Of a DNA stretch of 52,838 bases, positions 1,945-42,271 are shown piece after piece. Below the pieces are notes generated by a model. It did not search any database. It was given only the letters and a program-made list of their open reading frames with translations, and was not told where the DNA came from. The stretch's first letter is position 1; each line of letters begins with the position of its first letter. Made by a program: the position numbers and the translations under genes. This DNA comes from a virus (Duplodnaviria; Caudoviricetes): the IMG/VR virus record IMGVR_UViG_3300009149_000044, positions 1-52,838 of that record. One strand, 5' to 3'.

Positions 1945-2217
1945 CTAAGGACGGATTATCTGTTCGATCTTCGCTAAGCGATCCAATATCGCTTTCTGCG
2001 TCCCTACAATATCGCGCTGGTTCAGCTCAAGAGCTTTCAGCACGTCCTGCATATCTGCCCTCAACTGGGCGACCCCATCCTGCGCGCCTTTGGCGACCTC
2101 GAGTGCCAGACATGCGGTCGAGTTTACTGCGCTGAAAGTGTAAACGGCGCTCCCAAACACGATAAGCGCTGTCAGCAGAAACGTCAGCCATCTCGGGTTC
2201 AAGGGGTCGTCCTCCAC
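1945..2217 (-). CDS. small membrane protein with coiled coil (holin/spanin candidate)
   Basis: One N-terminal TM (WLTFLLTALIVFGSAVYTF) followed by a heptad-like helix. Confidence 0.45.
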   Translation of the reverse strand: MEDDPLNPRWLTFLLTALIVFGSAVYTFSAVNSTACLALEVAKGAQDGVAQLRADMQDVLKALELNQRDIVGTQKAILDRLAKIEQIIRP

Positions 2218-2918
2218 TCGGTATTCCTCACAGACTGGACAAGGATCTCAGGGCGCCAGCCCAAAGACACCAGAGCTTTGCACGCTGAGTCTCTGCGCTC
2301 GCGGTGATCTGGCCTGTTCTGGTTGCCATTGTCGGTCTTGACAGCCTTGAAATCCGTGTGGTTGATATCGACAATCCAAGACGGCGCTGCCGTGGCGAGT
2401 TGCACGGAGGCGTTCAGAACAATATCGTCTTCTTCGCGGGTCTTCTGGTCGAGGGTTAGCGAGAAAGCGTGATGTAGCAGCGGCTGTCGGACCGCATGGA
2501 GCAGCCCTTTGACCATCCCTACAGGTCGCTCTTCGTGGAAATAATCCTGCGGGTCATCCCAATAAGGTCCGGACAGGGTGTGGTTGATTAATCTGCCGAT
2601 AGCGCCGACAACGGAGAGTGGATGCCTTATCAGCCCACCAAGCAGCTTGGCGCAGACGCCAGGGTGGAGGAAATGGATATCGTCATCCACGAAAACGACA
2701 GCATCCACAGACAGTAAGAGCGCGGCGGCGTGTCGGGCCTGACAGCCGTAATTGGTATCCGCCCAGATGTTCTTCACGCCGACAATGGATTCGCTGCAGG
2801 GTGCGTTATGCCAAACTACCACCTCAGCTGGTGCGGGCTCCTGCTGGAGCACACGAGCGACCGTCTGATGTAGCAGTAACGGTCTCTTGTAGCCTAAGAT
2901 GACAACAGCATATCGCAT
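2199..2918 (-). CDS. GT-A fold glycosyltransferase (GT2/GT64-like)
   Basis: VVILGYKRP, EVVVWHN, VVFVDDD (DxD) and EEDDIVLN motifs. Confidence 0.8.
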   Translation of the reverse strand: MRYAVVILGYKRPLLLHQTVARVLQQEPAPAEVVVWHNAPCSESIVGVKNIWADTNYGCQARHAAALLLSVDAVVFVDDDIHFLHPGVCAKLLGGLIRHPLSVVGAIGRLINHTLSGPYWDDPQDYFHEERPVGMVKGLLHAVRQPLLHHAFSLTLDQKTREEDDIVLNASVQLATAAPSWIVDINHTDFKAVKTDNGNQNRPDHRERRDSACKALVSLGWRPEILVQSVRNTEWRTTP

Positions 2919-3631
2919 AAGACCTCGGTCCTCTCCACCGAAACTTGCTCGCTGAGGTGGACATCCTCTCGGCGATCTTTCATCAGGCCGTTCTGGAGCA
3001 TGAATTCCAGCATCAAGACGGCCTGACGATGGTATTGCGTGACAATACGACCATTGTCTTCTGTGGTGATGTCGCCTAGGTGTCTGACCCGAGGGTGCAT
3101 GAGGAAACCAGTTGAGAAACCTGAGCAGTGCGCTCGGATCGAGTAGTCAGCATCAACACCGCGGATCATCTTCTCGTCGTGGTAGCCGATACGTTGCCAG
3201 ACGTGCCGTTTGATGAAAACTGCCATCCCTACGACATAAGGAACGCCTGCGATCTCGTAAGGACGCATCTCACGGTCGGTATGCCAACCGGCTGCCAGAT
3301 CCAGACCGGATTCATAACAGTGCATCACCATATCGTTCACGACCAGCACGTCGTCTTGGAGCTCCAGAACTGCTGTCGCCTGGAGCTCCTCGAAGGCAAC
3401 CTTCATCACCGCATTATAAGCGGGTGCGATCGGAAGCATCACCCCGGTTTCGAGGATGATTGCGGGGCAGCCGGCCTGAGCTGCGAGCGCGCGTAGCTGT
3501 CGAGTAATCGTCTCTCCACCTCCGTTATTCAGCCAAACACGAGTGCATCCACCTCTTAGTGCAAGGTGATTGCTGACCACGGCCTCAAGAGGCCTCTTCC
3601 TGGGTGAAAAGACGGTCGTTACGACTTCCAT
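2894..3631 (-). CDS. GT2-family glycosyltransferase
   Basis: LQDD (DxD-like), AVFIKRHVWQRIGYHDE, DADYSIRA and VRHLG motifs; ATG overlaps the capsid stop (TGATG). Confidence 0.8.
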   Translation of the reverse strand: MEVVTTVFSPRKRPLEAVVSNHLALRGGCTRVWLNNGGGETITRQLRALAAQAGCPAIILETGVMLPIAPAYNAVMKVAFEELQATAVLELQDDVLVVNDMVMHCYESGLDLAAGWHTDREMRPYEIAGVPYVVGMAVFIKRHVWQRIGYHDEKMIRGVDADYSIRAHCSGFSTGFLMHPRVRHLGDITTEDNGRIVTQYHRQAVLMLEFMLQNGLMKDRREDVHLSEQVSVERTEVLCDMLLSS

Positions 3632-4641
3632 CAGCTACCGGATGCGCTATAGAGACCCTTGATCAGAGCCTTCGGCCTTGTGCATACGCAGAGAGGGTTC
3701 TGCTGCGTGTGGAGCGTGACACCACGATCCAGACTCATCATCTCCTTCTTCGCGTAGATCGGCAGGCCGACCGTGTTGACGGTCTCCATAAAGTCCGCCG
3801 GCGCGAAGTAGGTCAGATACATATTCGGAACGCCGACCGGGAAGAACCGAGCCTGCGCGGCGGGGAAGAAGTCGACCCCGCTGACGGTGCCAGGATACTC
3901 TTCGAAGACGATGCCGGCGAACTCGAATCCCTTCCGGGGATCGTTCCGGAGGAACTGGCCCTCCTGGAAGCGATCGTATGCTTCCTTGACGCTGGTGTGG
4001 CCTATGAAGGCGTCAAACCAGGTCTTGCCGACGAAGGCGTGGATGTGATCGTAGGGTGCAGCACCCAGGGCGGTTTCGACTGCACGTTTCACCGCCAGGC
4101 ACTTGAGGCGGCAGTCCGTGGTGGAATCACCGAGATCGAAGTCGACCTCCTGCTCCGACACCCCGAATTCGGTGAAGAGGTTGAAGAGGAGCGTGACGCC
4201 ATCTGCGTCGTAGATCTTCCCCTGAAGCGCACCGATGCGGTGATACTCGAGGGTGACCTCATGGCTCTGCCTCATAACCTCAAGGCGGTCATTGACAACC
4301 TGACTGACGCTCTGGAGCTGATTCTCCGTGCCGAAAGCGCGGATGTTCTGCACCTGCTCAGCCAGAATGGCATCTTCCAGCGGGATGTGGGGGATGGCGA
4401 ATGATCTCACCGTCCTCTTTTCACCCTGCCCGACATTCGACGGCCCCCCGCGGTGCTTGGTCGAGAGGAGCGCCAGCTTATCGGCGTTCTCTTCGATGAG
4501 CACGGTGAGGGTGGTAACGCCGCGGGTCCCGAAGAGCCCCATCGACCCGATCCTGCTCGGCTTGAACGGGAGCTTGTTGATCGCATCCGTCAGGCTCTGC
4601 AGACTGAAGATATCGCTGTCGAAAACATTGTTGACGGCCAT
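3631..4641 (-). CDS. major capsid protein (lambda gpE-like family)
   Basis: FSLQSLTDAINKLP, TLEYHRIGALQG, FAPADFMETVNTVGLP and QQNPLCVCTRP motifs; follows the decoration gene. Confidence 0.93.
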   Translation of the reverse strand: MAVNNVFDSDIFSLQSLTDAINKLPFKPSRIGSMGLFGTRGVTTLTVLIEENADKLALLSTKHRGGPSNVGQGEKRTVRSFAIPHIPLEDAILAEQVQNIRAFGTENQLQSVSQVVNDRLEVMRQSHEVTLEYHRIGALQGKIYDADGVTLLFNLFTEFGVSEQEVDFDLGDSTTDCRLKCLAVKRAVETALGAAPYDHIHAFVGKTWFDAFIGHTSVKEAYDRFQEGQFLRNDPRKGFEFAGIVFEEYPGTVSGVDFFPAAQARFFPVGVPNMYLTYFAPADFMETVNTVGLPIYAKKEMMSLDRGVTLHTQQNPLCVCTRPKALIKGLYSASGS

Positions 4642-4695: not shown

Positions 4696-5061
4696 TCAGA
4701 GCGTGGTGTAGGTCGGGCCCGTGCGGACCAGGATACCCAACGCCTTCAGCGCTGCGATCGCGGCAGTCTTCCCTGCAGCGTCCAGGGCACCCCAGTCGAT
4801 CGCGTCGTAAGCGACAATACCGTGCCGGACCATCCCGACTGCGATGCCATCAGCACCGGACGGCGCTGCGGCTTCGAGGGCGACAGCGGCTGCGCTGGCA
4901 CCTGTGGTGCAGACTACGTAATTACTCCCACTTGCTTCCAAGAGGGCTCCGACTACAATAGTCTGACCGTCTGTGATCGTGAGGTTCTCGCGGCTGAACC
5001 TCAGATCGCCTTCCATCTTGACGAGATCATTGAGATCTGTCAGCTGAGTCGAGCTGCTCAT
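4696..5061 (-). CDS. head decoration protein (gpD-like)
   Basis: FSRENLTI, AAVALE, ALKALGILVR; lies between protease and capsid. Confidence 0.85.
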   Translation of the reverse strand: MSSSTQLTDLNDLVKMEGDLRFSRENLTITDGQTIVVGALLEASGSNYVVCTTGASAAAVALEAAAPSGADGIAVGMVRHGIVAYDAIDWGALDAAGKTAAIAALKALGILVRTGPTYTTL

Positions 5062-5120
5062 TTGTCTGAATCTCCTGACTGCTTGAAATGGCTACCGGTT
5101 TACCTTGGTTCTGTTGACGT

Positions 5121-6164
5121 TCAGTGCTTGGCTGCGGCTGCTCTGCGTTCGGCGTCGGCGACCAGCGGGCTTACAGCCGGTGCGCCGGGGTGGTTGAGGC
5201 TGAGCGTCTGCGGTCCGCTGACGGGCTGCAGGTCGACCGCTTTGTTCTCCCTGAGGATCTCCACCAGCTTGTCAAACGAGTTGTCGCCCCGCGAAAGGGC
5301 CAGGTGGAGCGCTTTACTGTCCGCTCCGATCAGGTAGTCCTGGAGCTTATCGCGGACCGCCGGGGTGATATTGCCGGCTTCAACCAGCGTGTTCAGCTTC
5401 AGCGTCCGGTTCTCGGCTGCCATGCTGAGCAGGACCGGGTCGACCTCTTTGATGCCGCCCTTCTCCTTCAGCTGCGCTTCCAGCACCGCGACCTTGTCCT
5501 GAAGCTCCTTGACCTGCTTGCCATGATCCTCACCGAGCTTCGTTACGTGACTGAGGATGACCTCCTCCGCCTTGTCCTCAGCGGGGGCCTCTTCGATGCC
5601 GAGAGCCTTCGCGATCTTCGTCCAATCCATCTTTTTATTCTCCTTGAGCGACGCTGCAATGGCCTTGAATTCGCCAAGGCCGGGGATTACTGGGTCGGTG
5701 CAAAGCGCCACATGCGTGATGGGGCGCTTGTAGGTGTTGCCGTGGCCGTCAATCAGCACCGGCGGCACGTAGATGCTGACGTCAGACCTGCCTGCCAGGG
5801 CTATTCCGTCTTCGCCCACCAGGTCAATCACGCCCACGAGCGTATCGCCGTCGACAAAGACGTCCTCCAGCCAGCCGCGGTTGTCTTCTGGTGAGATCGA
5901 TTCAGGGTTCTTGGTGTGGGTGTGGGGAACAGGGACGCGGATACCGTTGGCCTTCATCTGACTGAAGGTCTGCGCCCAGTGGTGAAGTGAATCGCTGTTG
6001 ACAGCGAATGACATCCCGTCGCTGGCTTTGACGAAAGAGCCGACCTTGATGAGGTCTTTGCGGAACCGCTGATGCTGCACCCCATCGGTGTCATTCGGTG
6101 CCGCCAGCGCCAGCGCAGGTGCGCCTGGGTAGATGTAAAGGACTTCCGTGATCGGGTGTGCCAT
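5121..6164 (-). CDS. Mu gpI-like prohead protease/scaffold
   Basis: ITHVALCTDPVIPGL protease motif and coiled-coil scaffold C-terminus. Start moved to ATG 6164 (GGAG RBS; the upstream start lies inside the promoter). Confidence 0.8.
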   Translation of the reverse strand: MAHPITEVLYIYPGAPALALAAPNDTDGVQHQRFRKDLIKVGSFVKASDGMSFAVNSDSLHHWAQTFSQMKANGIRVPVPHTHTKNPESISPEDNRGWLEDVFVDGDTLVGVIDLVGEDGIALAGRSDVSIYVPPVLIDGHGNTYKRPITHVALCTDPVIPGLGEFKAIAASLKENKKMDWTKIAKALGIEEAPAEDKAEEVILSHVTKLGEDHGKQVKELQDKVAVLEAQLKEKGGIKEVDPVLLSMAAENRTLKLNTLVEAGNITPAVRDKLQDYLIGADSKALHLALSRGDNSFDKLVEILRENKAVDLQPVSGPQTLSLNHPGAPAVSPLVADAERRAAAAKH

Positions 6165-6199
6165 CGCTTGGTTCTCCAGGGTTATGACCTTACGGGGAT

Positions 6200-6228
6200 A
6201 GTATAAGACCATAACCCGGAGAAGTCAA
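6200..6228 (-). promoter_or_regulatory. sigma70-type promoter for the capsid/tail operon
   Basis: TTGACT-TCTCCGGGTTATGGTCT(17)-TATACT; near-identical to the promoter at 13189-13217. Confidence 0.8.
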
Positions 6229-6236
6229 GCAGAAAT

Positions 6237-6575
6237 CTATTCGACGTCTTCGTCTTCTGTATCTGCCGCTTGCTCGAGCATCTGCTGTTGGATTTCAGAA
6301 GCCAGCTTCTGCGCTTCCGCCTCGGCTTGCTGCTGCTTGCGGAGCCGTTCGGTGTCCTCTACGTATTGGAGACCATGGTCTCCTGGGTAGGGGTAGGGGT
6401 CGCGGTGGAGGTCGTTGCCTATGTAGATCTGCAAGGGGATTCCGTCAGGGAATGCCTCGCACTTTGTTGGGTCAGACCTGAACTGCCGTAAGCAAGTCAT
6501 GCATGGTGAAAGCTGCTTCGCAGTCAGCGTGGGTAGCGGATCGTTCAGCGCGGTGATCTTCTCTTTGGTGGCCAT
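6237..6575 (-). CDS. small Cys/His protein directly downstream of MuF (candidate immunity/partner protein)
   Basis: CMTC...CEAFPDGIP...[10 protein letters not shown]; ATG at 6575 follows an AAGGAAG RBS. Confidence 0.6.
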
Positions 6576-6594
6576 ATAGGGCTTCCTTTCTTCG

Positions 6595-9500
6595 TTAATC
6601 TGTATCGTCCAGGATTTCGACCTGGATGACTTTCCGCTCAATCCCTGCTTTGTAACGGTCTTTCACGTTATTGTATGTTTCCAGCACCCTGACCTTCGTG
6701 CCGTGCGGCAGGAGGTATTCGTTTTCGCTTTCGTTCATACCGGCGATAAGGCGTTGGCCTTTCTTCACTTTGAACTCGATCGCACAGACGCCCCTATCAA
6801 AGTCTATCAAAGGAATCTCTGCTGTAGAACCGAAGCCTTGGAATTGATAGACACCGCCCTTCTCCCAACCTGGCGGGATTACCCTTTGGAAGCGAACCAA
6901 GATCTTGTCTTCTTCCAAGCGTGCGGATCTGCTCATTGCACGGTCAACTCTTTTAAGCGCCTCCAGCTGACTACCCGATACAGAAACACCGTTGCGGGTG
7001 AAGTCCGCCAGCTTCAACTCTTTAACAGTCCGCGTTCTGCCTTCTGCAGCGGCAAGCTTGCGCAGCTTATCGTTCATTTCCATGTAACCACTACAGGTGT
7101 AATGTTTAACAGCCCGCTTCCCAGTTTCAGGCAAGCTGTGCCACCTTGCCTCATACGTTCGATAATGGTGCCTGGCTTTATCTCTAGCAGCTTCCCAAGC
7201 TGCAAAGCTCGCGGGTGTGGGGCTGCTACTCTTTTTGAACTTTAGCACTGCATCATCAAACTCGGGAAGCAGCGTCTTGCCAGCCACCACCTCTGCAGCA
7301 GCACGCCGGGACGTTACACTGGACGCGGAGCTAACAGTCTGGGCAAGCTTCACCTTAAGCGCTTCGCGCTGGGCCAAGATGTCGTTATAGCGCGCGCTCA
7401 AGGTCGCTTTCAGCTTCATCCGCGAGCCTGCAGTCATCCCAGACTTATCGATAATCCCGTTGACAACCCCCAAACCACCCTGGGCCTTTACACGAGCCTC
7501 GAAGTCGTCGATCAACGTGACCAGCTTCTTATCATTGATGCCAGCGAAGACCTTAGCAGCGGTCTTATTCATACTGGCGCTTCTGAGTGTCTGGAGCTCA
7601 CCGACAGTATTGCCGAACAAGTTCCCTTTCACGGCCCCTTGGGCTCGGTAGAGGAGCGCGCCACCGCTATCAAGACGGATGATCTTACCTGCTGCGTTGA
7701 TACCGATATTGTCGTAGTCAAGACCGACGACATCCCAGTTCGCCATCCAGGCATCAAACACAAAGCCCTCTTCGGCTTTCTTGTAAGCAGCCGCGGTTAC
7801 GTTGGAGAACTGCGCCTTCTTGTTGAACAGCGCCAACCTGCCATCCACAACACCAAGGCGAGATTCAATGGGCAGGCCGATCTGACTGCCGCCCAACTTC
7901 CGATACAACTCATTCGCCAGCCACTCATTCTGCAGCCGCTCGTCGGAAAGGCCGATCTTCATCACGAACTGGACGCCCGTCTGCGGGCCAGAAGTGATAG
8001 TGACCATCTTCGCACCGGTCGTGCCACCGATATGCGCGTCCTCCACACGGAAGGTCACACCGTCCAACCTCTCAAGGTCGGGCACCACCTCGGGTGCAAT
8101 CTCCTTTGCTGGCGCCGCTGCAGGTGTCGCTGCTTTGGCACCTGGCTGCGTGGTAACCTCGATATGCCACTTGCCGTCGATCTTCTGTCCCTTCAGCTTG
8201 CCAGCTTTCATCTGGTCGTAGGCTTTATCATATTTGATGCCCATCTTCGCTGCTGCGTCTTTGATCGGCAGCCATTCGACCACCGGCTTCGGTTTGTCAA
8301 AGGCGATATGCCACTTGCCGCCCACCTTCACGCCTTTGAGCTTGCCGGTCTTCATCATATCGTAGGCTTTATCATATTTCAGACCGAGCTTGCTGGCGGC
8401 GGTGGAGATAGCCAGCGTATCATGCAGACCTGGGTCATACGCAACAGTAGCGGGCACCAGGTCTGATATGGCAGGTGGTGTCGGCGCAGACGATGCTGGC
8501 GCTGCGGGCGGTGTTGGTTTCGCTTGTGGGGGTGGTGCGGCTATCACAAGCGGGCTGGGCGTAGGGGTCTTGGTCACCGTCAAGTCGACCACCTGCCACT
8601 CCTTGCCGTCAATCATCTCAGTGCTTATCTTGGTGACCTGCATCTGTGCTTCGCGCGGCAGGACAAAAACACCTGGATTGGCTGTCTTGGCGAGCGCACC
8701 GAGGTGCGCGCCATTCATCCCTTCTGGAACTTTGATCCGCCACAGAACAGCATTGGGAGACTTGTGGGTCGTGAGATAAGCTTCGTAGGTAGTCGCGGAG
8801 AAGTGGGCGCTTTGAGACACCAGCTGCCCGACTTGCAGGTTGGTAAAGGCTTTATCGCCAAACTGCCGTGCGTAGAGCAGTCTGGTCTTTTCCAGGGTGT
8901 TCTGTGCGGCCTTGTCTAGTGCCTGCAGGGCGGGGGCCGCGTTTGACCCATTGTAGTAATTCGCCAGCTGCTTGAGCTCTTCAGCTGACCAATGGTCAGC
9001 CCAGGTGTGGCCGAGCATGTCGTCTGTAGCGAGCTGTTGAGGTGTGGTCACTATGAAGGGGACATCTGCTTCGCTGACGACCTGCTGGAACACGCGGCCT
9101 GGATTGTAGTCGAAGCCTGGGTCAGGCAACGGCAGCGCCATCAAATCGGGGGGCTCGTAGCCTTCTGGCTCATGGTCCAGTGCAATGACATCGCAGCGGC
9201 AAGCCCACCCGTTCGGCGGCCAATAGTTTTCGAGGGTCGGCGAATCCCGCTTCATCAGCAGACCATCAAGAGCGGCGTGGTTCGGTCTGACGCGGTCATC
9301 GCCTACTGTGACGTATTTATAACCCCAGATCAAGTCCTTGAATGCTTCGTGCTGGTCTGCTTGCCAGATGCCTGCGCTGTAGGCCAGCTGAACTTGAGTG
9401 CGAGTGATTGCCTCCAGCTGGAATGAGTTCACCGGCGTGATGCCAGACGCCTCGAATGCCTGGCCCAACCGCTTGACACCGTCCTGGACGTGCATCCCTT

Positions 9501-9960
9501 GCGCGACGATGTCATCGACTGCCTTGCGCAGGTCAGCTTCGACGCCTGCTCCCATCTTATGCCATACCAGAACAGACTTGGCGTGCATCTCTCCAGCCAG
9601 CTCCTGGAGGCGTTCTGTCGGAATGGCGGCTATCCGCTGGTGGGTCTTCAGGGCTGTGTCGAATGGTGCCATCTGTTTTGGCGATGACGCCAGCTGCAAC
9701 GTAGCTTGAGCCATCCGTTCGCCATATGCCACGACGAAGGCGGCGAGCGCGGCTTGCGTCACGTGGTTGCGGCCTTGGCCCAGTATTGATATGGCATCCT
9801 GGATGAACGTCGCGCTGCCCCGCTTAAACCCAGCTATCGCAGCACGCTGGCAGCGCCAGCCCACCTTACGGACTGCTTCCAGCGCCTTCCGTTCGTAGCG
9901 GGCCACTTTGCGCTGCCTGAGCTCAACCTGCGTCCGCTCTAGATCAGTGACTTTTGACAT
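6595..9960 (-). CDS. MuF / SPP1 gp7-like minor head protein with C-terminal effector domains (degenerate ART, two HTH, kinase-like, ADP-ribosyltransferase)
   Basis: MuF motif [13 protein letters not shown]...[10 protein letters not shown] directly after the portal; ART motifs [25 protein letters not shown]. Confidence 0.85.
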
Positions 9961-11321
9961 CAGCTACCCGTAAGCTTCTTGAGAATGTTGCGGCTCATCT
10001 CGGCGACCTTGCCGGGCTCCATACCCGGCTCCGGCTTTTCGTGCTCCAGCGCTTCGTATTCCTGCTGCGGCACCTCCAGCTTGTCTTTCAAGGACACCGT
10101 ATCGATCGTCCCATACTCCTCAAGGAACCCGCTGGGATTCTCGAGCAGCTTCTGGTAGATCTGGCGGAGGTAGGCCAGCGACCGATCTTCAAGCGGCGCC
10201 GCCTGCAGCCATACCTGGCTCCTCATCTTCAAGCCGAAGTTCAGCTCCAGGATCTGATCGACGCAGTGCCAGTTGATGTGGCGGGTGATGTGGCGGTCGA
10301 TCAGCTCCATATTCGTAAGCGCCAGGTTGGCGTGGACGCCCGCCTCCGCCTTGGTGCCAAATTCGCCCTCCAGGACCGCACGCTCCGGTAGCAAAAGCGC
10401 ACGAATCTTCTGGACATCGAGATATCGCAACCGGTCGATGAAGGTGGGTTGGCGTCCACCTCGATCTTCCAATATCTCGATCTTCCACTGGAGGGCTTCT
10501 TGATTCATCTGGTCCACGAACTCCGCTACCGTCTGCGGAACAGATATCGAGCCGCTGGACTCGAGCGTCTGCAGGACAGCCTTGGCAATCTCTGCGTTGC
10601 TCGTCTCAGCGCTGTTGTAGAGGCTGGTGCCAACCGGGTAGTAGACCACGAAGTGTGAGCCGGCGATCTTCTTATCATATCTCGCTGCGCCTGCATTCGC
10701 CTCGACCCATTCGTTGTAGGATACTCGAGCGTGCTCAAGGAGGCTCTGGCCGTGCCATTGCGTCCCTTCGACCCTGAATGGCACCAAGAGCACCTTATTG
10801 AGGGGCAGGTAGACCTCTGTCCCGTCCGTGCTGGTCTGCTTGAAACCAACGAACTCGCCTGTCGTGGCCAGCACCTGGATCTCTGTCAGGTCGTGGAGCA
10901 GCGGTTTCAGCTTGCTCAGCACAATACGAAGCTGCCCGCTCTCGTCGAACTTCAGCTTGAAGATCTTCTCGTAGCCTTGCCAGCCGAAGTCAATCCCACC
11001 GAAGAGCGCCGTTTCCATGATCATCTCGCGCAGCGGCACAAAGATCTCGTCGATGAGCGCCACTGCATCCTCTGGCGCGTCCTCGGCAGCCTCCACAGAC
11101 CAGGCACCAGCCATAATCGGCGCTGCTGTCAAGGCGCGGCCGAGTGCTATGGTGGGGTCTTGGCGGATGGTTCGATATGTCGCGTAGGACTTCGGCAGCG
11201 GATCGATCAGCGTGCCGCTGGTGCAGTAGGACGTCACCTGGGGCTTCGTCAGCTCCTGCGTGTCAATAGGCGGGCCAGCGATGGCCTTGTTGGGGTCTAT
11301 GCGGAGTCTTTCAGGGCTCAT
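9960..11321 (-). CDS. portal protein (Mu gp29/DUF935-like)
   Basis: Between terminase and MuF; FGWQGYEKIF, GQSLLE and QILELNFG motifs. Confidence 0.85.
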   Translation of the reverse strand: MSPERLRIDPNKAIAGPPIDTQELTKPQVTSYCTSGTLIDPLPKSYATYRTIRQDPTIALGRALTAAPIMAGAWSVEAAEDAPEDAVALIDEIFVPLREMIMETALFGGIDFGWQGYEKIFKLKFDESGQLRIVLSKLKPLLHDLTEIQVLATTGEFVGFKQTSTDGTEVYLPLNKVLLVPFRVEGTQWHGQSLLEHARVSYNEWVEANAGAARYDKKIAGSHFVVYYPVGTSLYNSAETSNAEIAKAVLQTLESSGSISVPQTVAEFVDQMNQEALQWKIEILEDRGGRQPTFIDRLRYLDVQKIRALLLPERAVLEGEFGTKAEAGVHANLALTNMELIDRHITRHINWHCVDQILELNFGLKMRSQVWLQAAPLEDRSLAYLRQIYQKLLENPSGFLEEYGTIDTVSLKDKLEVPQQEYEALEHEKPEPGMEPGKVAEMSRNILKKLTGS

Positions 11322-12661
11322 GTCGTGGTCACCTCTAACCGACTGGTAGCAATTCTGACGCGGATGGGATAGAGCAGTGAGATGATGTAGCCGAGCGCGT
11401 CAGTAATATGGCCAACATCACCTGAGTCATCTGGATCGCGTGATCCAGGCTTGTAGCCTCGCATCTGTAGGTCGTCCTTCAGGTGCTTACACCGTGGGTC
11501 GATGAATAAGCGGCAGTCGCCTGCGGCGTTTCTGAACATAGCGTTGCACGCCGCGAAACGGTCCTGCACGGCAGGGTTCTTCTCAGGGTAATGAATGGAC
11601 CGCCCCAGCCGTTTGAACCGTTCATCGTTAGCGATAATCAGGTAGTCGGTTTCTACAGCCGATGTCTTACGTGCGCGGCCTGTAGCATCACCGTAGAACT
11701 CAAAGCCGGCCTGGTGATCTTGATACCTCTGGTATAGAACGTCCAATGCCGCCATTGTATTGGTGTTCCGCATCCATAGCTCGTCAAACACCTCGAATCG
11801 ATCGAGCCAGCGGTGTCCTATGACCCACGCCATGGGGTCAACGTTGAAGTCGGAGCCGACCACGATTGCTTTGTCTGGTCTGTAAGTGACCGGCCTGACG
11901 TTATATTCTTCTGTGTAGGCAAAGAAGATCTGGCCCCCTGCCGTCTCGAACTTCGCCTCGAATTGCTCCCTGAAGTCCTTTATATCCATGTGCTGCTTAG
12001 CATGATCGAGGGCAGCTTGGGGCACAATACCTTCGCTAGGCCAGGTGAAGCCTGCAGCGTTCTCCAGCTCCCCTGCTGCAGCACGTTGGAAGAACTCTCG
12101 GTATTCAGCGACACCGATACCATGGCGCTTCGGCACACCGATCCTCCAACACCACGCATCCCGCCAAGAGAGGGCTGGCAGCACGTTGCGATCGAACGTG
12201 CCTGGCTTAATGTCACATGATTCATCTATGACGCAACCATCCCACTGAACCCCTTCTACGCGGGCGGGCTTATCCAAGCCGACGACCCACAGCTCAGAAC
12301 CGAACACGGTTCTGATGACCAACTCAGAGTGGCTCGGACTGCCGGCGATCCAGTTTTCAGGGATGAGACGAAGTAGATGATCCCAGGCAATGCGTTTCGC
12401 CTGCTCGTAGGTGGGTGCACCGTAGAAATATCTGGGGTCTTCCCAAGCCTTCTGGACCGGCAGGAACCTGACAAGGCGGCGCTTTGCCAACTCGGTCTTA
12501 CCGGATCCGCGTCCAGCCGGCACTGCTACGAACCTCTTCTTGCACGTCCATAGCTGAGACTGGATAGGATGGAACCGCAACGGGGTCCAGGCTGAGGTTG
12601 GACCGATCTGCTCAGGCGGTGCTTCTTGCTGCAATAACTCGGTCATCTGTCGGCTGACCAC
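11318..12661 (-). CDS. terL: terminase large subunit
   Basis: Walker A AGRGSGKT, Walker B CVIDE, nuclease GSDFNVDP and HITDALGY; true start may be ATG 12646. Confidence 0.93.
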   Translation of the reverse strand: MVSRQMTELLQQEAPPEQIGPTSAWTPLRFHPIQSQLWTCKKRFVAVPAGRGSGKTELAKRRLVRFLPVQKAWEDPRYFYGAPTYEQAKRIAWDHLLRLIPENWIAGSPSHSELVIRTVFGSELWVVGLDKPARVEGVQWDGCVIDESCDIKPGTFDRNVLPALSWRDAWCWRIGVPKRHGIGVAEYREFFQRAAAGELENAAGFTWPSEGIVPQAALDHAKQHMDIKDFREQFEAKFETAGGQIFFAYTEEYNVRPVTYRPDKAIVVGSDFNVDPMAWVIGHRWLDRFEVFDELWMRNTNTMAALDVLYQRYQDHQAGFEFYGDATGRARKTSAVETDYLIIANDERFKRLGRSIHYPEKNPAVQDRFAACNAMFRNAAGDCRLFIDPRCKHLKDDLQMRGYKPGSRDPDDSGDVGHITDALGYIISLLYPIRVRIATSRLEVTTT

Positions 12662-12767
12662 TCCGGTTATGGCAGTATGGACATTCGAGATCGATCGGCT
12701 CCCCTAAACAGATCGCCAACCATTTGAACCCGCATATCCAACACCGCGCCACAACCAAAATCACCAT
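12612..12767 (-). CDS. 51-aa zinc-ribbon protein
   Basis: Hand-translated: MVILVVARCWICGFKWLAICLGEPIDLECPYCHNRSG...; two CxxC pairs; ATG overlaps the terS stop. Confidence 0.6.
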   Translation of the reverse strand: MVILVVARCWICGFKWLAICLGEPIDLECPYCHNRSGQPTDDRVIAARSTA

Positions 12768-13135
12768 TAGTTGTCTTCCAGATCGAGGTCAGCGAAGTCA
12801 AGAGGGGTCAGCCGCCGCCTGTGGCGGATGGCAGCAGGGGGGCGTCCGAGCGTCACCGCGTCCATCATCAGGACGATCTGATCGGGCGTAGACGCTACCT
12901 GCTGGTTCACGTTCAGATCGATGGTCGTGTTCTTTGGCAGCAGCGGCATTACGATCTGCGTGAAGAACCTGAGCGCATCTACCTTGATCGCCTCTTCGAA
13001 CTTGTCCCGCAACCGCTTTCGGTTGTTGGCATCACTCAAGACCTCATCCAGCACGAAGAGGGCTCTGGTCCGGCCATTGACGGAGCCCCTCGGTCTGCCA
13101 GCTGGATTACCGCTTTCACCTTTTTCCCACGCCAT
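12767..13135 (-). CDS. terS: terminase small subunit (DUF5681-like N-terminus)
   Basis: WEKGESGNPAGRPRGS motif; upstream of terL; start at ATG 13135, downstream of the promoter. Confidence 0.7.
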   Translation of the reverse strand: MAWEKGESGNPAGRPRGSVNGRTRALFVLDEVLSDANNRKRLRDKFEEAIKVDALRFFTQIVMPLLPKNTTIDLNVNQQVASTPDQIVLMMDAVTLGRPPAAIRHRRRLTPLDFADLDLEDN

Positions 13136-13188
13136 CTTTTCATCTCCCGTGAATTCTGCTCTCATCTGCTTCGGACCTTTACATGGTA

Positions 13189-13217
13189 AGTATAAGGTCA
13201 TCACCCGGAGAAGTCAA
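13189..13217 (-). promoter_or_regulatory. sigma70-type promoter for the packaging operon
   Basis: TTGACT-TCTCCGGGTGATGACCT(17)-TATACT. Confidence 0.8.
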
Positions 13218-13249
13218 GCAGAATTCTATATGTCGGTCTGCTCAAGAGG

Positions 13250-13858
13250 TTACGTGCTCTCACCATCCCTGCATAGATACCACGCATTCATCCACTGCAC
13301 CTTGGCGAATCCTGGGTGCCACGGATCAATGTATTCAGACCAGTGGGCACCTAGGATTGAATCGGTGATCTCAAACCTGCTTACGCCTACTGGGTAACCG
13401 CCGGGGGTCAGGTTCTCGTAGAAGCACGTCATCTCCATGACCCGTAAGCCCAAGTCCTTTTCGCGTATCATATCTGCTTCTGCAGCCGTGGGCGGGTTGA
13501 GACCGAATCTCTTCCAGATCTCCGCCATCCACATCGCTTGCCACGCTCTGTAGTCGATGGTTATCACTCGGCTGACCTGCAGTCTGAAGTAATCCTTCAT
13601 CGGTGATATGATATCACCTGTGTAGACCTCATGCGCGTCGTGGAGCAAACCATGCACCCGCAGATGAGGTGGCAAGGCTGCCGCTACATAAACGCTATGC
13701 TGGGCTACGCTATAGAACGCACCTGAGTGGCCGTTATACCGAGCCTTGTTCGCCAGCCCGTTTGCTATATCCTCCAGCTTGATTTCCTCCGCTCTGGGGA
13801 TGAGCAGGTGAACCTTCGGGCACTTCTGCGTCTGCAACCAAGGTTGCTCTGATTTCAT
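13250..13858 (-). CDS. HD-domain phosphohydrolase (YfbR-like 5'-deoxynucleotidase)
   Basis: RYNGH, YSVAQHS and LLHDAHEVYTGDI motifs. Confidence 0.85.
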   Translation of the reverse strand: MKSEQPWLQTQKCPKVHLLIPRAEEIKLEDIANGLANKARYNGHSGAFYSVAQHSVYVAAALPPHLRVHGLLHDAHEVYTGDIISPMKDYFRLQVSRVITIDYRAWQAMWMAEIWKRFGLNPPTAAEADMIREKDLGLRVMEMTCFYENLTPGGYPVGVSRFEITDSILGAHWSEYIDPWHPGFAKVQWMNAWYLCRDGEST

Positions 13859-30113: not shown

Positions 30114-30288
30114 TTGATCCTTTCGGTTGGTAATCGCGCAGTTGGCCCTCGGTCACGAATTTCTCAAGGCTCAGATCGTGACCGTCGTTGATGAGCGCGT
30201 GGTAGGAAAGCAGCCGGTTCCGCACGCCCTCGATGTTCAGTGCTTCACTATGCTGCGGGGTGGTATTGACTGCGAAGAAGATCTTCAT
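30070..30288 (-). CDS. small protein resembling the N-terminal beta1-beta2 segment of phage DpdA/TGT-like barrels
   Basis: MKIFFA...NRLLSY; ATGA overlap with the dpdA stop. Confidence 0.5.
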   Translation of the reverse strand: MKIFFAVNTTPQHSEALNIEGVRNRLLSYHALINDGHDLSLEKFVTEGQLRDYQPKGSIDATQGDARPSGDV

Positions 30289-31112
30289 GTGAAGAAGCCC
30301 CCGTTCTTGGCGACACGGAACGGCCGCGGCTTATACGTCTTCTCGACGTGGAGGAAGAACCGACAGGCCAGCCGCTGTCGCTCATAAGGTGAGGTTCGTA
30401 GAACATCGAGGCTGAACCCCTCATGCTCGAAGTAGCGGAGAATATACTCTTGCTGCTGTGCACCGATCAGGTCGATATGCCGAGATCGCTTCAGCTCAGT
30501 CAACGGCGGGCGGTCACTGACTGCCACGCACTCCGGTGACCGCGTGAAATCATATCCATCCTTGCCCCAGGCCGGGACCAGCGCGTAACCATACCCGCCA
30601 TATCTGACCCACGACATCGAATCAACCGAATACCACGGGTATCGAAACAGCAGCGATACTGTCGTCACTCCGAACCCGTGCGTCTTGATGCAAGGGTAAC
30701 CGTCATTCTCTTTGCACAGGAACGTGAAAACGTCGTCCAGCCAAACTGCACGCTGGGCTGGCGTCTTGTCGTTTGCTGGTGAGATCCCGATGTAGTCGTG
30801 GCCGGTAGCAATCATCTTCTCCAGCCAAGACAGCCGCTCCCCTTGGTGGTAAACGGGCATCGGCTTGAGGCCTCTTGCCTCCATATGCAGCAGGTTTTTC
30901 CAACCTTCCGCTGCCGCCAACTCGACCTGATCAGGCGAAGGCTTCTGGAAGGGCTTACCTGGGATCACGTCCAGGTTCACGTAGGCGAAGAGGAGGTGCT
31001 CACGGGCTTTGACATATTCGCAGTAAGCGTCTATGTCGATCTGGCCTCCCCGGTTCCACGCGGAGAACGCACCGCTGTCGAGGATGAGGTCAACTTTGCG
31101 CTGCATTGTCAA
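30285..31112 (-). CDS. dpdA: DpdA-like 7-deazaguanine DNA transglycosylase (TGT fold)
   Basis: LILDSGAFS, NLDVIP, MPVYH, THGFG and YSVDSMSW motifs; embedded in the que gene cluster. Confidence 0.8.
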   Translation of the reverse strand: MTMQRKVDLILDSGAFSAWNRGGQIDIDAYCEYVKAREHLLFAYVNLDVIPGKPFQKPSPDQVELAAAEGWKNLLHMEARGLKPMPVYHQGERLSWLEKMIATGHDYIGISPANDKTPAQRAVWLDDVFTFLCKENDGYPCIKTHGFGVTTVSLLFRYPWYSVDSMSWVRYGGYGYALVPAWGKDGYDFTRSPECVAVSDRPPLTELKRSRHIDLIGAQQQEYILRYFEHEGFSLDVLRTSPYERQRLACRFFLHVEKTYKPRPFRVAKNGGFFT

Positions 31113-31554
31113 AGCCTTCCTCAGTGCAGTAGAACGCCTGCGGTGTGATCGAAATACCGCCCCTGGGGAAGAACTCGCCCCGCACCTCCATCATCTGCGG
31201 ATCCAGAAGCGCAACAAGGTCGCTCAAGATCCGATGAATGCAGGCTTCGTGGAACTCACCGTGGTTCCGGAAGCCCATCAGGTAGAGCTTCAGCGACTTG
31301 CTCTCGACACACCAGTTATGTGGGAGGTAGTCAATGAAGATCTTGGCGAAGTCGGGCTGGCCCGTTACCGGGCACAAACTCGTGAACTCAGGCGCTTCAA
31401 TATGGATGACCATATTGCTCGTAGGGACACCATGTCCTTCTGTAGACTTATGCGGGTTCTTGAAGCGCTCGAGAACCTGACTGTCAGGGCGGTCGAATTG
31501 ATACAGCTTACGGTTGGAGGCGCTCTGCCCGAGTGCCTTGAGGTCATTTTCCAT
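31090..31554 (-). CDS. queF: preQ0 reductase (unimodular QueF)
   Basis: EFTSLCPVTGQPDFA, QueF motif ESKSLKLYL, FHE, RGGI. Confidence 0.92.
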   Translation of the reverse strand: MENDLKALGQSASNRKLYQFDRPDSQVLERFKNPHKSTEGHGVPTSNMVIHIEAPEFTSLCPVTGQPDFAKIFIDYLPHNWCVESKSLKLYLMGFRNHGEFHEACIHRILSDLVALLDPQMMEVRGEFFPRGGISITPQAFYCTEEGFDNAAQS

Positions 31555-31564
31555 CGGGGCTCCT

Positions 31565-32464
31565 TCAGCGGGTCAGTGAGAGAAACTCCTCTCGGGTGCG
31601 GGGATCATCACGCATGTCGCCCAACAGGGCTGACGTCGTGGTGGACGTTCCGGCAGTCCGGACACCGCGGCTCTCCATACAAAGATGCCGGCACTTCAGC
31701 ACAACACCGACGCCGACTGGAGTGAGCTCCTCGAAAAGCGTCGTGGCTATCTGCGTTGTCAGGCGCTCCTGAACTTGGAGGCGCCGTGCGAATACGTCGA
31801 CAAGGCGGCTCAGCTTGGACAAGCCAACGATCCTCCCTTGTGGGATATACCCAATATGGGCCACGCCGAAGAAAGGCGCACAATGGTGCTCACAATGGCT
31901 CCAAACGGGTATATCACGCTGGACTATCATCTGGTCGTAGCCCTCACCGCCGTCCTCGAAGACCTTGAAGATTTCCCGCGGGTCTTGGCTGTAACCGCTG
32001 GTCCAGAATTGCCACGCCTTCAAGAAGCGCGCTGGTGTCTCGAGCAAACCTTCCCGCCGGGGGTCTTCCCCAACGAACTCCAGCAGCCGAACAGGGATGT
32101 CTTCTGCTGAGCCATCACGGTCTGAGCGCTCCCAAGGGAAGCTCACCCAGGGATCACCCGGTTGCTTCTCAACCAGCGCGTAGAACGGGCGCTCGGTGTT
32201 GAAGGATGTATCCAGCCAGAAATCGCGAGTCCGGCCGGAATCGATGATGTCGTCGATGATAAAGCTGGCGGTGGCGGCGTCATCGACTACACGACACCCT
32301 GGGCCCAGGTGGTGGGCCACAGCATACGCTGCAGGAATCCCACCCCTGGGCACCCCGAACAGATTGCAGCTGGTGAACGGCATTATCTGATCAGCCCGGA
32401 TGCGCTGTGCAACGCTCTGCGCCAGCTGGTCAACATCAGCCAACGTCAGGTGACGCATCGTCAT
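31565..32464 (-). CDS. folE: phosphoribosyltransferase-GTP cyclohydrolase I fusion
   Basis: N-terminus GVPRGG, IIDDIIDSGRT, WVSFPWE (Gpt-like PRTase); C-terminus REGLLETPAR, CEHH, GLSKLSR, RRLQVQERLT, HLCMESRG. Confidence 0.92.
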   Translation of the reverse strand: MTMRHLTLADVDQLAQSVAQRIRADQIMPFTSCNLFGVPRGGIPAAYAVAHHLGPGCRVVDDAATASFIIDDIIDSGRTRDFWLDTSFNTERPFYALVEKQPGDPWVSFPWERSDRDGSAEDIPVRLLEFVGEDPRREGLLETPARFLKAWQFWTSGYSQDPREIFKVFEDGGEGYDQMIVQRDIPVWSHCEHHCAPFFGVAHIGYIPQGRIVGLSKLSRLVDVFARRLQVQERLTTQIATTLFEELTPVGVGVVLKCRHLCMESRGVRTAGTSTTTSALLGDMRDDPRTREEFLSLTR

Positions 32465-33228
32465 CAGTTACCTCCCTCTTCGCCAGCTGCGGCTGCGGCT
32501 TCAGCTTCGACCGGCTTCCGGGCCAGATCGTTCACGCGGGTGATCAACGGATCCTTGACGCCAGCTTCACTGAAGCCCCGCGCACGGATCAGGCATGCGT
32601 GGCACTGGCCGCATGGCGGGAAGACACCTTGGTAGCAGGTGTGGGAAAATGCGAGACCCGCCATACAGCCAGGCAGGTCCTGTGCCACCCGCACCGTCTG
32701 CGCTTTGGTGAGTTTGAGCAGTGGCGCTACGATGTCGATCGCCTCAACAGTGTCACCAAGACCGAGGTTAAGCGCCTTCTGCATCTGGCGCAGGAACATA
32801 TCGCGGCAGTCCGGATAACCACCGAAGTCGGCCTGGCTAACACCGATCACCACATAGTGGTAACCACGGGACGCTGCGCGGTTCGCTGCGATTGACAAGA
32901 ACAGCGCGTTCCTGCCGAGCACGAATGTTGGTTCCGGTTCGCGCTCCTTCGGGAGGTGATGATAGTTCTCGTAAACGGGAACCGCCTCGGCGCTATTTAC
33001 CAGTGGACTGGTGCCTTCGAATACATTACCCAGCTGAATGACCTCACGCTCGACACCGACTGCCTCTGCGATCTGCTGTCCGCAAGCCAGTTCGATCGCG
33101 TGTCGCTGCCCGTAGTCAAATGACAGCGCCAGGATCTTCTCTTTGGGGAAGCGCTCCAGCGCCCAGTAGAGGCACGTGGTCGAATCCTGACCACCCGAAA
33201 AGATTACGACTGCTCCATCTTCATCCAT
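32464..33228 (-). CDS. queC: 7-cyano-7-deazaguanine synthase
   Basis: FSGGQDSTT, FDYGQRH, YPDCR, TCY...CGQCHAC..R. Confidence 0.95.
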   Translation of the reverse strand: MDEDGAVVIFSGGQDSTTCLYWALERFPKEKILALSFDYGQRHAIELACGQQIAEAVGVEREVIQLGNVFEGTSPLVNSAEAVPVYENYHHLPKEREPEPTFVLGRNALFLSIAANRAASRGYHYVVIGVSQADFGGYPDCRDMFLRQMQKALNLGLGDTVEAIDIVAPLLKLTKAQTVRVAQDLPGCMAGLAFSHTCYQGVFPPCGQCHACLIRARGFSEAGVKDPLITRVNDLARKPVEAEAAAAAGEEGGN

Positions 33229-33265
33229 TCCAGATCTCCTTGGTTGCAACAGACTGAAAAGCATA

Positions 33266-33313
33266 AGGGTCAGGGGCACGTCCTTTTGCCTCCCGACCCT
33301 TAAACTATATCAC
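33266..33313 (-). promoter_or_regulatory. GTGATATAGTT motif followed immediately by a leader hairpin upstream of queC
   Basis: Minus strand: GTGATATAGTTT-AAGGGTCGGGAGGCA-AAAGGACG-TGCCCCTGACCCTT. Confidence 0.55.
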
Positions 33314-33327
33314 GGCACTCATCGACC

Positions 33328-33849
33328 TCAGCCTTTGAGGCGCTTGATGACCTCCAGGGTTGTTCTCGTGTCGTAGAACATTGTCTCGAACGTGCTGGTG
33401 GCCAGGCTGAAACCCTCACCGAGCAGCGTATCGAAGACCTTCTGCTTGTCCCAGTCTTCGTGCAGCACCATCAGCTCCTTGAGGCGGACGGTGGAACCTT
33501 TCTTTTTCTTCGGCGCCGTCTTGGCAGTCTTCTTCGGTTCGACCTTGGGCTCGTCGGGGACTGTTGCAGCCTCCGCGGGTGCCTCCGGCTCGACATCCGG
33601 TTCCGCCGCTGCGGCTTTGGTTTTCGGCTTGCCGGCCTTCGGGAAGTCGAGAATATCGACCTTATCCTCCAGCGCCTGGACCGCATCATTGCTCCACTGC
33701 TGCGCAGCTTCGCTCAGTGCCGCCCACTCCTCTTCAGGCAGCTCGTTCACCGCTCTGAGAACCTTCGCCAAGAAGACTTGCTTCTTCTCGCCGACCTTCT
33801 TCTTCACACCCGTCTTCGCCAGGATTTCTTCAGCTACCGTCGCCATCAT
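33328..33849 (-). CDS. hypothetical Lys/Glu/Ala-rich protein within the que cluster
   Basis: GAGGAG RBS; start/stop overlap with queD. Confidence 0.6.
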   Translation of the reverse strand: MMATVAEEILAKTGVKKKVGEKKQVFLAKVLRAVNELPEEEWAALSEAAQQWSNDAVQALEDKVDILDFPKAGKPKTKAAAAEPDVEPEAPAEAATVPDEPKVEPKKTAKTAPKKKKGSTVRLKELMVLHEDWDKQKVFDTLLGEGFSLATSTFETMFYDTRTTLEVIKRLKG

Positions 33850-34274
33850 TCATCTCCTCTTTTCTCAGCGAAGCTCGTCGGGGTCTCCCAGACCCTCACA
33901 CTAGCGAGCTTCATACCATCGAACGTGCAGCCGTCCTGCATACGTGCAAGAAGCTGCGAAAAGAACAATTCGGCCATCGCCTCAGCGGTTGGATTCGTGT
34001 CCATCTGGATCACCCGCTGTCCCGCTGCAACAAGGAGGGGCACAAGCGGGTCGCGCCTATAAAGGACTGTAACGTGATCCCACATCTCCACCTCATCTCG
34101 CAGCGCTGCTTTCAGGTCACCAAAATCGACGAGCATCGCCTCCGGTCCCCACGGAACTTTGCCGCTGACTGTCGCTTCGATCTTGTAGCGGTGGCCGTGC
34201 AGGAATTGACACTTCCCTGGGTAATCCAACAACCTGTGCGCTGCGTCAAATTCGATCATCGTCGTGACGTTCAT
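33846..34274 (-). CDS. queD: 6-carboxytetrahydropterin synthase
   Basis: FDAAHRL..YPGKCQFLHGH, VDFGDLK, NPTAE, VWET. Confidence 0.93.
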   Translation of the reverse strand: MNVTTMIEFDAAHRLLDYPGKCQFLHGHRYKIEATVSGKVPWGPEAMLVDFGDLKAALRDEVEMWDHVTVLYRRDPLVPLLVAAGQRVIQMDTNPTAEAMAELFFSQLLARMQDGCTFDGMKLASVRVWETPTSFAEKRGDE

Positions 34275-41924: not shown

Positions 41925-42260
41925 CAGTCTCAAGAAACCTTTCGCGCTCCTACAACGCATATGACGCACGAAGACGAAAGCGCGAAGGACAGGGGATGCG
42001 GTGTTTACCGAGTGCACCGTGAGACCCACCAGGCAAGGCACCTGGAGCGCGACCTACAATACCAATCCGGGCTACGTCCTACCCTGACGACCCGGTCCCC
42101 GATCAGTGCTTCAGTTCGAGCCTGGTAGCTGACCGATAGATTATCTGCTGTTGGTGTTCAACAGCGCTATCGGCTCAGTTCAATGCCACGATCGAGGCTA
42201 TTAGGTTAAGAAGACCTGGTTAGCCCAGATCGGGGATAATGGGACTCGGTATTGAGTCAA
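41925..42260 (+). ncRNA. candidate large structured RNA (leader of queE or independent ncRNA), family unknown
   Basis: No ORF of 60 aa or more; at least nine nested helices identified by eye, several with G-U pairs valid only on the + strand; promoter-like motif immediately upstream. Confidence 0.6.
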
Positions 42261-42271
42261 GGAGAAGACCA

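Follow-up and report, generated by a model that had tools for sequence, protein, structure and literature searches.

The question raised by this locus is why a phage head protein should carry a row of enzyme-like and DNA-binding domains behind its head-anchoring core. The locus lies in the IMG/VR virus record IMGVR_UViG_3300009149_000044 (Duplodnaviria; Caudoviricetes), the whole of which, 52,838 bases, was analysed and is called the window below. A single uninterrupted open reading frame (ORF) on the minus strand, at 6595-9960, encodes 1121 amino acids plus the stop codon. In it a MuF core is followed by a degenerate ADP-ribosyltransferase (ART) domain, two helix-turn-helix (HTH) repeats, a predicted atypical kinase domain, and a second ART domain at the C-terminus. 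We consider, with a probability of roughly 0.6, that this MuF protein is an effector with several enzymes that travels inside the capsid of a tailed phage, probably a virulent one. The reading that the effector is packaged agrees with the position of the gene, which lies in a Mu-type head module right after the portal gene, and it fits the published inference on MuF fusions. A first-pass annotation, made from the sequence letters, had proposed these five parts in one gene; all five were recovered using Pfam, PHROG and AlphaFold2 (AF2), and its coordinates were correct to within a few tens of bases. The features of the gene are as follows.

6595-9960, minus strand: whole MuF gene, 1121 residues, from the ORF call and its translation
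9532-9960, minus strand: N-terminal region, residues 1-143, part of the same head-protein module as the MuF core
9184-9531, minus strand: MuF / SPP1 gp7 core, residues 144-259, Pfam Phage_Mu_F (PF04233), E 4.1e-16, scoring 60.2 bits where the cut-off is 29.6
8569-8991, minus strand: ART-like domain 1 (ART1), residues about 324-464, Pfam ADPrib_exo_Tox (PF03496)
8434-8568, minus strand: Pro/Ala/Thr-rich linker, residues 465-509, read from the translation
8299-8418, minus strand: HTH_17/excisionase-type repeat 1, residues 515-554, Pfam HTH_17, and TIGR01764 at residues 515-554
8170-8289, minus strand: HTH_17-type repeat 2, residues 558-597, second stretch of the Pfam match, Rv2175c_wHTH at residues 558-595 and the excisionase family phrog_2907 at residues 563-597
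7351-8067, minus strand: atypical kinase-fold domain (predicted), residues 632-870, predicted site K668, E679, D743, D750, N751 and D764
6622-7155, minus strand: ART domain 2 (ART2) of the VIP2/Alt type, residues about 936-1113, with R1023, S1045 (in GST) and E1079-N-E1081

The match to the MuF family exceeded the curated cut-offs in both Pfam and NCBIfam (TIGR01641, E 2.2e-15, 57 bits against a cut-off of 39.65), and phrog_220, “minor head protein and DNA pilot”, was matched across residues 98-410 with an E value of 1.5e-26. The gene is intact, and its ATG shares one base with the 3' end of the portal ORF at 9960-11321 on the same strand, so that the placement beside the portal in a head module, by which MuF / SPP1 gp7 proteins are recognised, was found here as well. 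The likeness to the minor head proteins SPP1 gp7 and Mu gpF consists of a domain above the cut-offs and a gene directly after the portal. SPP1 gp7 is without a toxin domain (PMC5576092), whereas here the core is succeeded by a cargo of about 830 residues with enzymatic and DNA-binding domains.

The middle domain, for which a HipA/PI3-4-kinase-like character had been claimed, is an atypical kinase fold as judged from its model. The AF2 model, built on an alignment of 13 shorter relatives, had a pLDDT of 84.7 and a pTM of 0.83. It was compared with known structures using the VIA aligner, by which all 48,161 PDB representatives were scored, and using Foldseek at E ≤ 1e-3. The top VIA match was CtkA of H. 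pylori (3akj), with a Z score of 13.5 and a root-mean-square deviation of 3.5 over 188 residues, followed by CotH (5jda, 12.1), PI4KII-alpha (4pla, 11.7), MavQ (7m7a, 10.2), Rio1 (10.1) and HipA (4pu3, 10.1); other HipA-type folds were matched by 5k98 (Z 9.4) and HipT (7ab3, Z 9.5). All of the best 50 VIA matches listed were kinases or kinase-like enzymes, and the same was true of those listed among the 54 Foldseek matches. A kinase fold had been named beforehand as one of the points on which the proposal would stand or fall, and AF2, VIA and Foldseek agreed on such a fold. The kinase motifs quoted in the first-pass annotation were all located at residues 645-767, and the helical tail of the domain extended to about residue 870.

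Alignment of 161 copies of the domain showed that the residues expected of a phosphotransferase are strongly conserved and that the MuF protein itself carries all of them. The putative strand-3 lysine, K668, was conserved in 158/161 copies and the helix-C glutamate, E679, in 160/161; in the catalytic loop, D743 was conserved in 155/161 and N751 in 158/161, and the metal-binding D764 in 155/161. The spacing of the catalytic loop was NWD-x6-DN. Downstream of it a family-specific segment, R772-A-Q-G..K778-G...E788, was present, in which K778 and E788 were invariant (161/161 each). Compared with CtkA, CotH, PI4KII-alpha, MavQ and HipA, the fold was shared over 181-208 aligned residues and the candidate Lys, Glu, Asp, Asn and Asp residues were present, whereas the identity was 8-16%, and the NWD-x6-DN spacing and the RAQG..KG segment set the domain apart from these atypical kinases. 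To judge from these residues, the kinase site and the site of ART2 look catalytically intact.

The family to which the kinase domain belongs is very large and unnamed. When 1.84 billion cluster representatives were searched exhaustively with phmmer, the number of relatives was 4234 at E ≤ 1e-3 and fell to 2564 at E ≤ 1e-10 and to 43 at E ≤ 1e-30. Many of these domains were part of proteins 1000-7000 residues long, and two to five copies were seen in some proteins. No Pfam family, kinases included, was matched at residues 621-853 even at E ≤ 10, and NCBIfam gave nothing there. Membership of the HipA family was rejected because neither HipA_C (PF07804) nor HipA_2 (PF20613) was matched at E ≤ 10, so that only the fold is shared; sub-threshold matches to one or the other were found over the kinase domain of 5/28 relatives and of the relative P0101. 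Membership of the PI3/PI4 kinase family (PF00454) was rejected likewise, as Pfam gave no match and the resemblance was confined to the fold of PI4KII-alpha (Z 11.7). In a protein-language-model atlas the domain was placed among unnamed bacterial and viral clusters, the nearest named ones being HipA_2 and PI3_PI4_kinase with a score of 0.92. The top matches by structure in BFVD belonged to large phage proteins that bear the name portal protein or ADP ribosyltransferase.

ART2 appears from its sequence to be an ADP-ribosyltransferase of the R-S-E clade with intact catalytic residues, as the description of a VIP2-like C-terminal ART with R, GST and ENE motifs had anticipated. When residues 854-1121 were searched alone, Pfam ADPrib_exo_Tox was matched with an E value of 9.4e-6 (25.5 bits against 23.4), and PHROG 802, “Alt-like RNA polymerase ADP-ribosyltransferase”, with an E value of 6.3e-5. 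R1023, S1045, E1079 and E1081 were invariant in the alignment of ART2 with four relatives. They fell in columns that were conserved among the 130 ART domains collected from the MuF protein and its 149 best relatives, where the arginine was found in 129, the serine in 123, and the first and second glutamates in 119 and 127 domains, respectively. A family profile of ART2, dominated by the four relatives in its alignment, matched VIP2 (1qs2) in the PDB with an E value of 1.3e-20, the R, STS and ExE motifs being in register. From VIP2 through iota Ia, CdtA and Vis to C3 the E values ranged from 1e-20 to 1e-8, and C2I and Certhrax were matched as well. Phmmer with ART2 alone gave no match in the PDB. 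An ExE motif generally accompanies arginine specificity, and ART2 is probably arginine-specific.

Kinase and ART recur together as a conserved cassette of two domains. A census of architectures was made in the 150 best representatives, including the MuF protein, with small ART and MuF hidden Markov models built from Pfam-defined segments. An ART was found in 100, a MuF domain in 63 and both in 50. The commonest order was MuF-kinase-ART (38), followed by kinase alone (31), kinase-ART (26), kinase-kinase-ART (12), MuF-kinase (12), MuF-kinase-kinase-ART (7) and MuF-ART-kinase-ART (4). The last set consisted of the MuF protein described here and P0023, P0050 and P0101. A kinase had an ART as its next neighbour in 102 pairs, the median gap being 113 residues, and in P0002 (3416 residues) the pair was repeated five times (KAKAKAKAKA). 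In a cross-check of 28 relatives with Pfam, MuF together with ART was found in 14 and some ART in 21. Among cultured phages, the kinase domain was present in proteins annotated “ADP-ribosyltransferase” in Aeromonas phage ST4 and Pseudomonas phage Dolphis, of 1177 and 1222 residues (L001 2138-6948; L002 2039-7051), in each case with a C-terminal ART. The genes of these two proteins lie outside the head module and are followed by a hypothetical gene of about 165 codons and then by a NUDIX/nucleotide phosphatase gene. In P0003 (3130 residues), several kinase-like copies were joined to NUDIX, tyrosine-phosphatase and SH2 domains.

These counts bear on what had been implied about the protein. The statement that no characterised protein of this five-domain combination was known held in the literature searched, where none is characterised, whereas the implied uniqueness was overstated, since MuF-kinase-ART accounts for 38/150 representatives. 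A unique five-domain layout was likewise rejected, the order MuF-ART-kinase-ART recurring in three other proteins. Neither a description of the kinase-ART cassette nor a paper on the kinase family was found in the full-text literature searched, which did not extend to subscription papers and supplements. Because of the tight kinase-then-ART order of the cassette, the two domains probably share a target or pathway.

The same order leaves room for a second explanation, which we regard as possible but clearly the less likely one, namely that the kinase-fold domain is a working partner of the ART and not an independent protein kinase. The two would then make one compound modification, the domain priming, regulating or aiming the ART, or modifying the NAD/ADP-ribose-derived group or the same residue cluster, with delivery in the head unchanged. 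The strict order and short spacing of the 102 pairs, about half of which are less than 85 residues apart, the fivefold repeat in P0002, the ART in 100/150 relatives and the additional segment from R772 to the invariant K778 and E788 speak for such a partnership. NUDIX domains or genes recur in P0003, P0050, P0154 and P0155 and at the ST4 and Dolphis loci, which hints at NAD/ADP-ribose chemistry, and kinase folds with other chemistry, such as SidJ and SelO, exist. However, the kinase was found without ART or MuF in 31/150 representatives and with MuF only in 12, so that it can stand alone, and the classical Lys/Glu/Asp/Asn/Asp set is the one that a plain phosphotransferase requires. The special features of the MuF protein lie in its remaining domains.

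ART1 was matched by ADPrib_exo_Tox at residues 371-464 (E 1.4e-11, 44.5 bits against 23.4), the match being confined to the latter half of the profile, from position 103 to 195 of 196. The motifs HFSATT (residues 386-391), LWRIKVPEG (406-414) and VFVLPR (431-436) lie at 8653-8805 of the window, and Arg and Ser were kept in the R and S columns. That this first ART lacks ExE had been noted at first pass, and the alignments bore it out: the E-K-E of Vip2 was aligned to P429-G-V431, and hhalign against the relatives and hmmalign gave the same register. In the column of the second catalytic glutamate, the 130 ART domains contained Glu in 127, gaps in 2 and Val in 1, the latter being V431 of ART1, which was thus the sole non-Glu residue in that column. 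Because both catalytic glutamates are replaced, ART1 is predicted to be an ART-fold relative and not a competent transferase. It may be an adaptor, by analogy with the binary toxin enzymes that have two ART folds, or a remnant. In those enzymes the dead ART fold lies next to the live one and serves for docking to a pore component. The likeness to VIP2, iota Ia, CdtA and C2I lies in one dead and one live ART-fold domain per polypeptide, and it extends to the alignments, as the best matches of the ART2 profile were binary toxin enzymes and ART1 aligned to the C-domain of Vip2. Here, in contrast, about 470 residues, the HTH repeats and the kinase among them, separate the two ARTs, and the protein that carries them is a phage head protein.

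ART1 is followed by the linker, which had been described as a Pro/Ala linker and was located in the translation at residues about 465-509, and then by the two excisionase-type HTH repeats, which were also found as proposed. Pfam HTH_17 was matched in two stretches (E 3.5e-8, 34 bits against 27), TIGR01764, “excise”, reached 29.5 bits against a cut-off of 28.8, and the repeats were identical to each other at 26/37 positions (70%). HTH_17 was absent from 34/34 relatives scanned with Pfam, and phmmer with the HTH region of the MuF protein gave no match among 154 relatives. The HTH pair is thus a distinguishing feature of the MuF protein among the relatives scanned, and it plausibly holds the cargo on DNA. 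The relative with the most similar MuF part was P0049 (2116 residues, E 1e-46), in which a weak, sub-threshold intein-splicing match (E 5e-4) was observed just behind the MuF core.

Taken with the published MuF fusions, the domains suggest the following course of events. The MuF module (residues 1 to about 290) would place the protein next to the portal within the procapsid, as for SPP1 gp7 and Mu gpF, with the remaining cargo suspended on flexible Pro/Ala-rich linkers. This cargo would comprise the dead ART-like domain, as adaptor or NAD-binding remnant, the tandem HTH_17 repeats, the atypical kinase and the VIP2/Alt-type ART. During infection the protein would exit the head together with the DNA, and in the cytoplasm the kinase and the ART would modify host transcription, translation or defence proteins ahead of phage gene expression, acting on one target or pathway. 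The HTH pair would keep the cargo on DNA, either at the packaged or leading end of the genome or on the nucleoid. We infer each of these points, from packaging and ejection through the activity of the enzymes and the arginine specificity to the binding of DNA and the targets.

Proteins injected with the DNA act ahead of the reading of phage genes and decide between defence and phage in the first minutes, T4 Alt being the classic single example. In the MuF protein the head-anchoring domain bears both a predicted kinase and a predicted ADP-ribosyltransferase. Once known, the targets of the cassette would explain a common tool of phages for take-over or anti-defence, and the cassette could yield a new pair of protein-modifying enzymes. 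The dead first ART and the DNA-binding pair would be natural variants useful for its dissection.

Several observations weigh against this reading. With respect to the head, the presence of the protein in virions and its exit from them are argued by analogy. The earlier proposal of an injected effector thus fared unevenly, since the apparently intact sites and the head-module placement fit the published inference, whereas virion presence, ejection, DNA tethering and timing follow by analogy only. With respect to the kinase, the domain is without a Pfam family and without a sequence-detectable relative of solved structure; a kinase-only profile gave just a chance topoisomerase match among PDB sequences (E 0.06). 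Its substrate class, whether protein, lipid or small molecule, would not be fixed by the modelled fold, and the top folds mix protein kinases (CtkA, CotH, HipA, Rio) with lipid kinases (PI4KII-alpha, MavQ). With respect to ART2, the AF2 model, built on a 5-sequence alignment, was unusable (pLDDT 44.4), so that the identity comes from the sequence, and the Pfam score was 2 bits above the cut-off. Word-index searches turned up no close homologue, whether for ART2 or for the full-length protein: the latter had 5 partial matches, ART2 retrieved only itself among proteins of similar length, and stand-alone ART2 retrieved none. In protein tblastn against phage records, 221 records were matched, none of them spanning 80% of the MuF protein. 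With respect to the phage, the record is a fragment rated 53% complete, which leaves “virulent” unproven, and published MuF toxins come almost exclusively from temperate phages (PMC5576092).

Comparison with known systems placed the MuF protein among the MuF-effector (“polyvalent”) head proteins already described, as a new variant and not as a new kind, the special elements being the dead first ART and the HTH pair. MuF proteins are head components, and their fusions with effectors, Alt/VIP2-type ARTs among them, have been proposed to be injected, according to PMC5512222, PMC9503650, PMC5576092 and PMC7302621. MuF-VIP2 ART fusions are described there for the Microbacterium phages Percival, Goodman and Johann (PMC7302621), an E. 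faecalis EFV toxin is cited in PMC5576092, and Alt/VIP2 ARTs fused to MuF are given in PMC9503650. The MuF protein shares with them the MuF N-terminus and a C-terminal VIP2/Alt-type ART with R-S-ExE. The excerpts of these sources mention no kinase between MuF and ART, whereas a kinase fold, a dead ART and two HTH repeats are found here; the word “kinase” has 0 occurrences in the main text of PMC5576092.

With the polyvalent proteins (Iyer et al. 2017, PMC5512222) it shares the combination of several effector domains in a single polypeptide, a gene that lies with those for the virion and a predicted injection. Proteins of this polyvalent or MuF-effector kind have at least two effector-type domains and are encoded with virion genes (Iyer 2017, 2022), and here the kinase fold, ART2, ART1 and the HTH repeats were all found behind MuF. 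ARTs and kinases are listed among polyvalent-protein domains in that text. Its kinase family is described as having lost the C-terminal subdomain, with a conserved His...Asp pair with an insert and a Glu before strand 2, and as coming mainly from (pro)phages of Verrucomicrobia-Chlamydia and Bacteroidetes (PMC5512222). Compared with this description, the kinase domain here keeps a helical C-terminal part and has no His among its conserved columns, and so does not obviously fit that family.

A functional likeness exists to phage T4 Alt, which is packaged in the head, and to the T7 protein kinase; they serve early host take-over by ADP-ribosylation and phosphorylation, respectively (PMC5512222). 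T4 Alt, however, has no MuF fused to it, and ART2 matched the Alt-like PHROG 802 weakly. Here both predicted activities lie on one MuF head protein. The T7 kinase, moreover, is expressed and not packaged.

The HTH pair allows a more specific and, in our view, unlikely version, in which the cargo is an escort riding on the incoming genome. The HTH pair would hold a coupled kinase-ART on the leading DNA end and so disable DNA-bound host proteins in cis, such as restriction or other DNA-targeting defence enzymes, RNA polymerase or nucleoid proteins. The dead ART would be a decoy or docking module, and the kinase-ART pair a hitherto unrecognised two-enzyme modification machine in thousands of phages.

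The surroundings of the gene bear on the remaining alternatives. In the head module the genes stand in the order TerL, portal, MuF gene, small ORF, protease/scaffold, decoration protein and major capsid protein, as follows.

11318-12661: large terminase (TerL), upstream of the portal gene
9960-11321, minus strand: portal gene, directly upstream of the MuF gene, Pfam Portal_Mu, E 1.4e-11
6240-6575, minus strand: small ORF of 112 residues, counted from an internal ATG, following the MuF gene
5121-6212, minus strand: Mu-like protease/scaffold gene, downstream, phrog_328, E 6.1e-6, and Pfam Mu-like_Pro, E 2.1e-4, below the cut-off
4696-5061: head decoration protein, downstream
3631-4641: major capsid protein, downstream

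The small ORF was called mechanically at 6237-6641, with a TTG start that lies inside the MuF gene. Its product has a Cys-rich N-terminal half, a Gln/Glu/Ala-rich, possibly helical middle and an acidic tail. It had no match in Pfam, PHROG or phage tblastn and no similarity to the genes behind the ST4 kinase-ART protein, and its neighbours in the atlas were unnamed viral clusters only. It lies at what we take to be the place of the morphogenesis gene in Mu-type head modules. It is possibly an immunity-like partner of the cargo, or a head morphogenesis protein.

The window is the entire virus record and is classed as linear. Almost every gene lies on one strand. The replication genes comprise DNA polymerase A, a clamp, a clamp loader, two helicases and a primase; recombination and tail genes are also present. 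A PHROG scan of 54 ORFs revealed neither an integrase nor a repressor, in a record rated 53% complete. The DNA polymerase was at most 34% identical to any in 50,697 phage records, with which the window had no similarity at the DNA level, and a search with the MuF part for related loci in IMG/VR gave no relative. Because of this distance of the polymerase and the lack of an integrase or repressor in the ORFs scanned, the phage is considered new and is probably a virulent tailed phage. A full 7-deazaguanine (queuosine-type) set was observed at 30285-34352 on the minus strand and 42239-42916 on the plus strand, with TGT/DpdA-like, GTP cyclohydrolase, QueC-like, QueD-like and QueE-like genes, the QueE-like gene being among the very few on the plus strand. 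This set suggests that the phage DNA is modified.

On this background we consider it very doubtful that the protein belongs to the MuF polymorphic toxins as defined by Jamet et al. 2017, serving lysogeny decisions or bacterial competition, with the small ORF at 6240-6575 as its immunity protein. The layout of such toxins, a MuF N-terminus with a C-terminal toxin-type domain, is present here. ARTs make up 14% of 191 MuF toxins (PMC5576092), and an ORF without a known family does follow the MuF gene. However, the 54 ORFs contain no integrase or repressor, the phage has its own replication genes and a DNA-modification set typical of lytic phages, and the small ORF stands where Mu-type head modules carry a morphogenesis gene and does not resemble the genes that follow the kinase-ART gene of ST4.

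A 21-base core was observed in two exact copies on the minus strand, at 6214-6234 and 13203-13223, within a promoter-like element of about 40 bases (TTGACT, 17 bases, TATACT). One copy lies upstream of a small-terminase-like ORF and the other between the small ORF and the protease gene. In the shuffle control for the repeat, 0/100 shuffles yielded any match, and a promoter/terminator scan of 5000-13500 gave an overall signal at chance level. Each copy may mark a late transcription unit, the first of which would contain the MuF gene.

That the cargo acts only in the producing cell late in infection, or is clipped by the head protease and discarded so that nothing enzymatic is injected, is improbable: the gene does appear to belong to a late head operon with promoter-like copies upstream of the terminase genes and after the small ORF, a Mu-like protease gene is adjacent and the Pro/Ala linkers could be prone to cleavage, but the recurrent fusion to MuF (63/150) and, in BFVD, to a portal-named protein is hard to explain unless residence in the head matters, and T4 Alt is a precedent of an injected ART (PMC5512222).

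At the other end of the module, two ORFs just after the major capsid protein gene (2199-3631, minus strand) had sub-threshold glycosyltransferase matches (E about 1e-4 to 2e-4), an unusual location for such genes.

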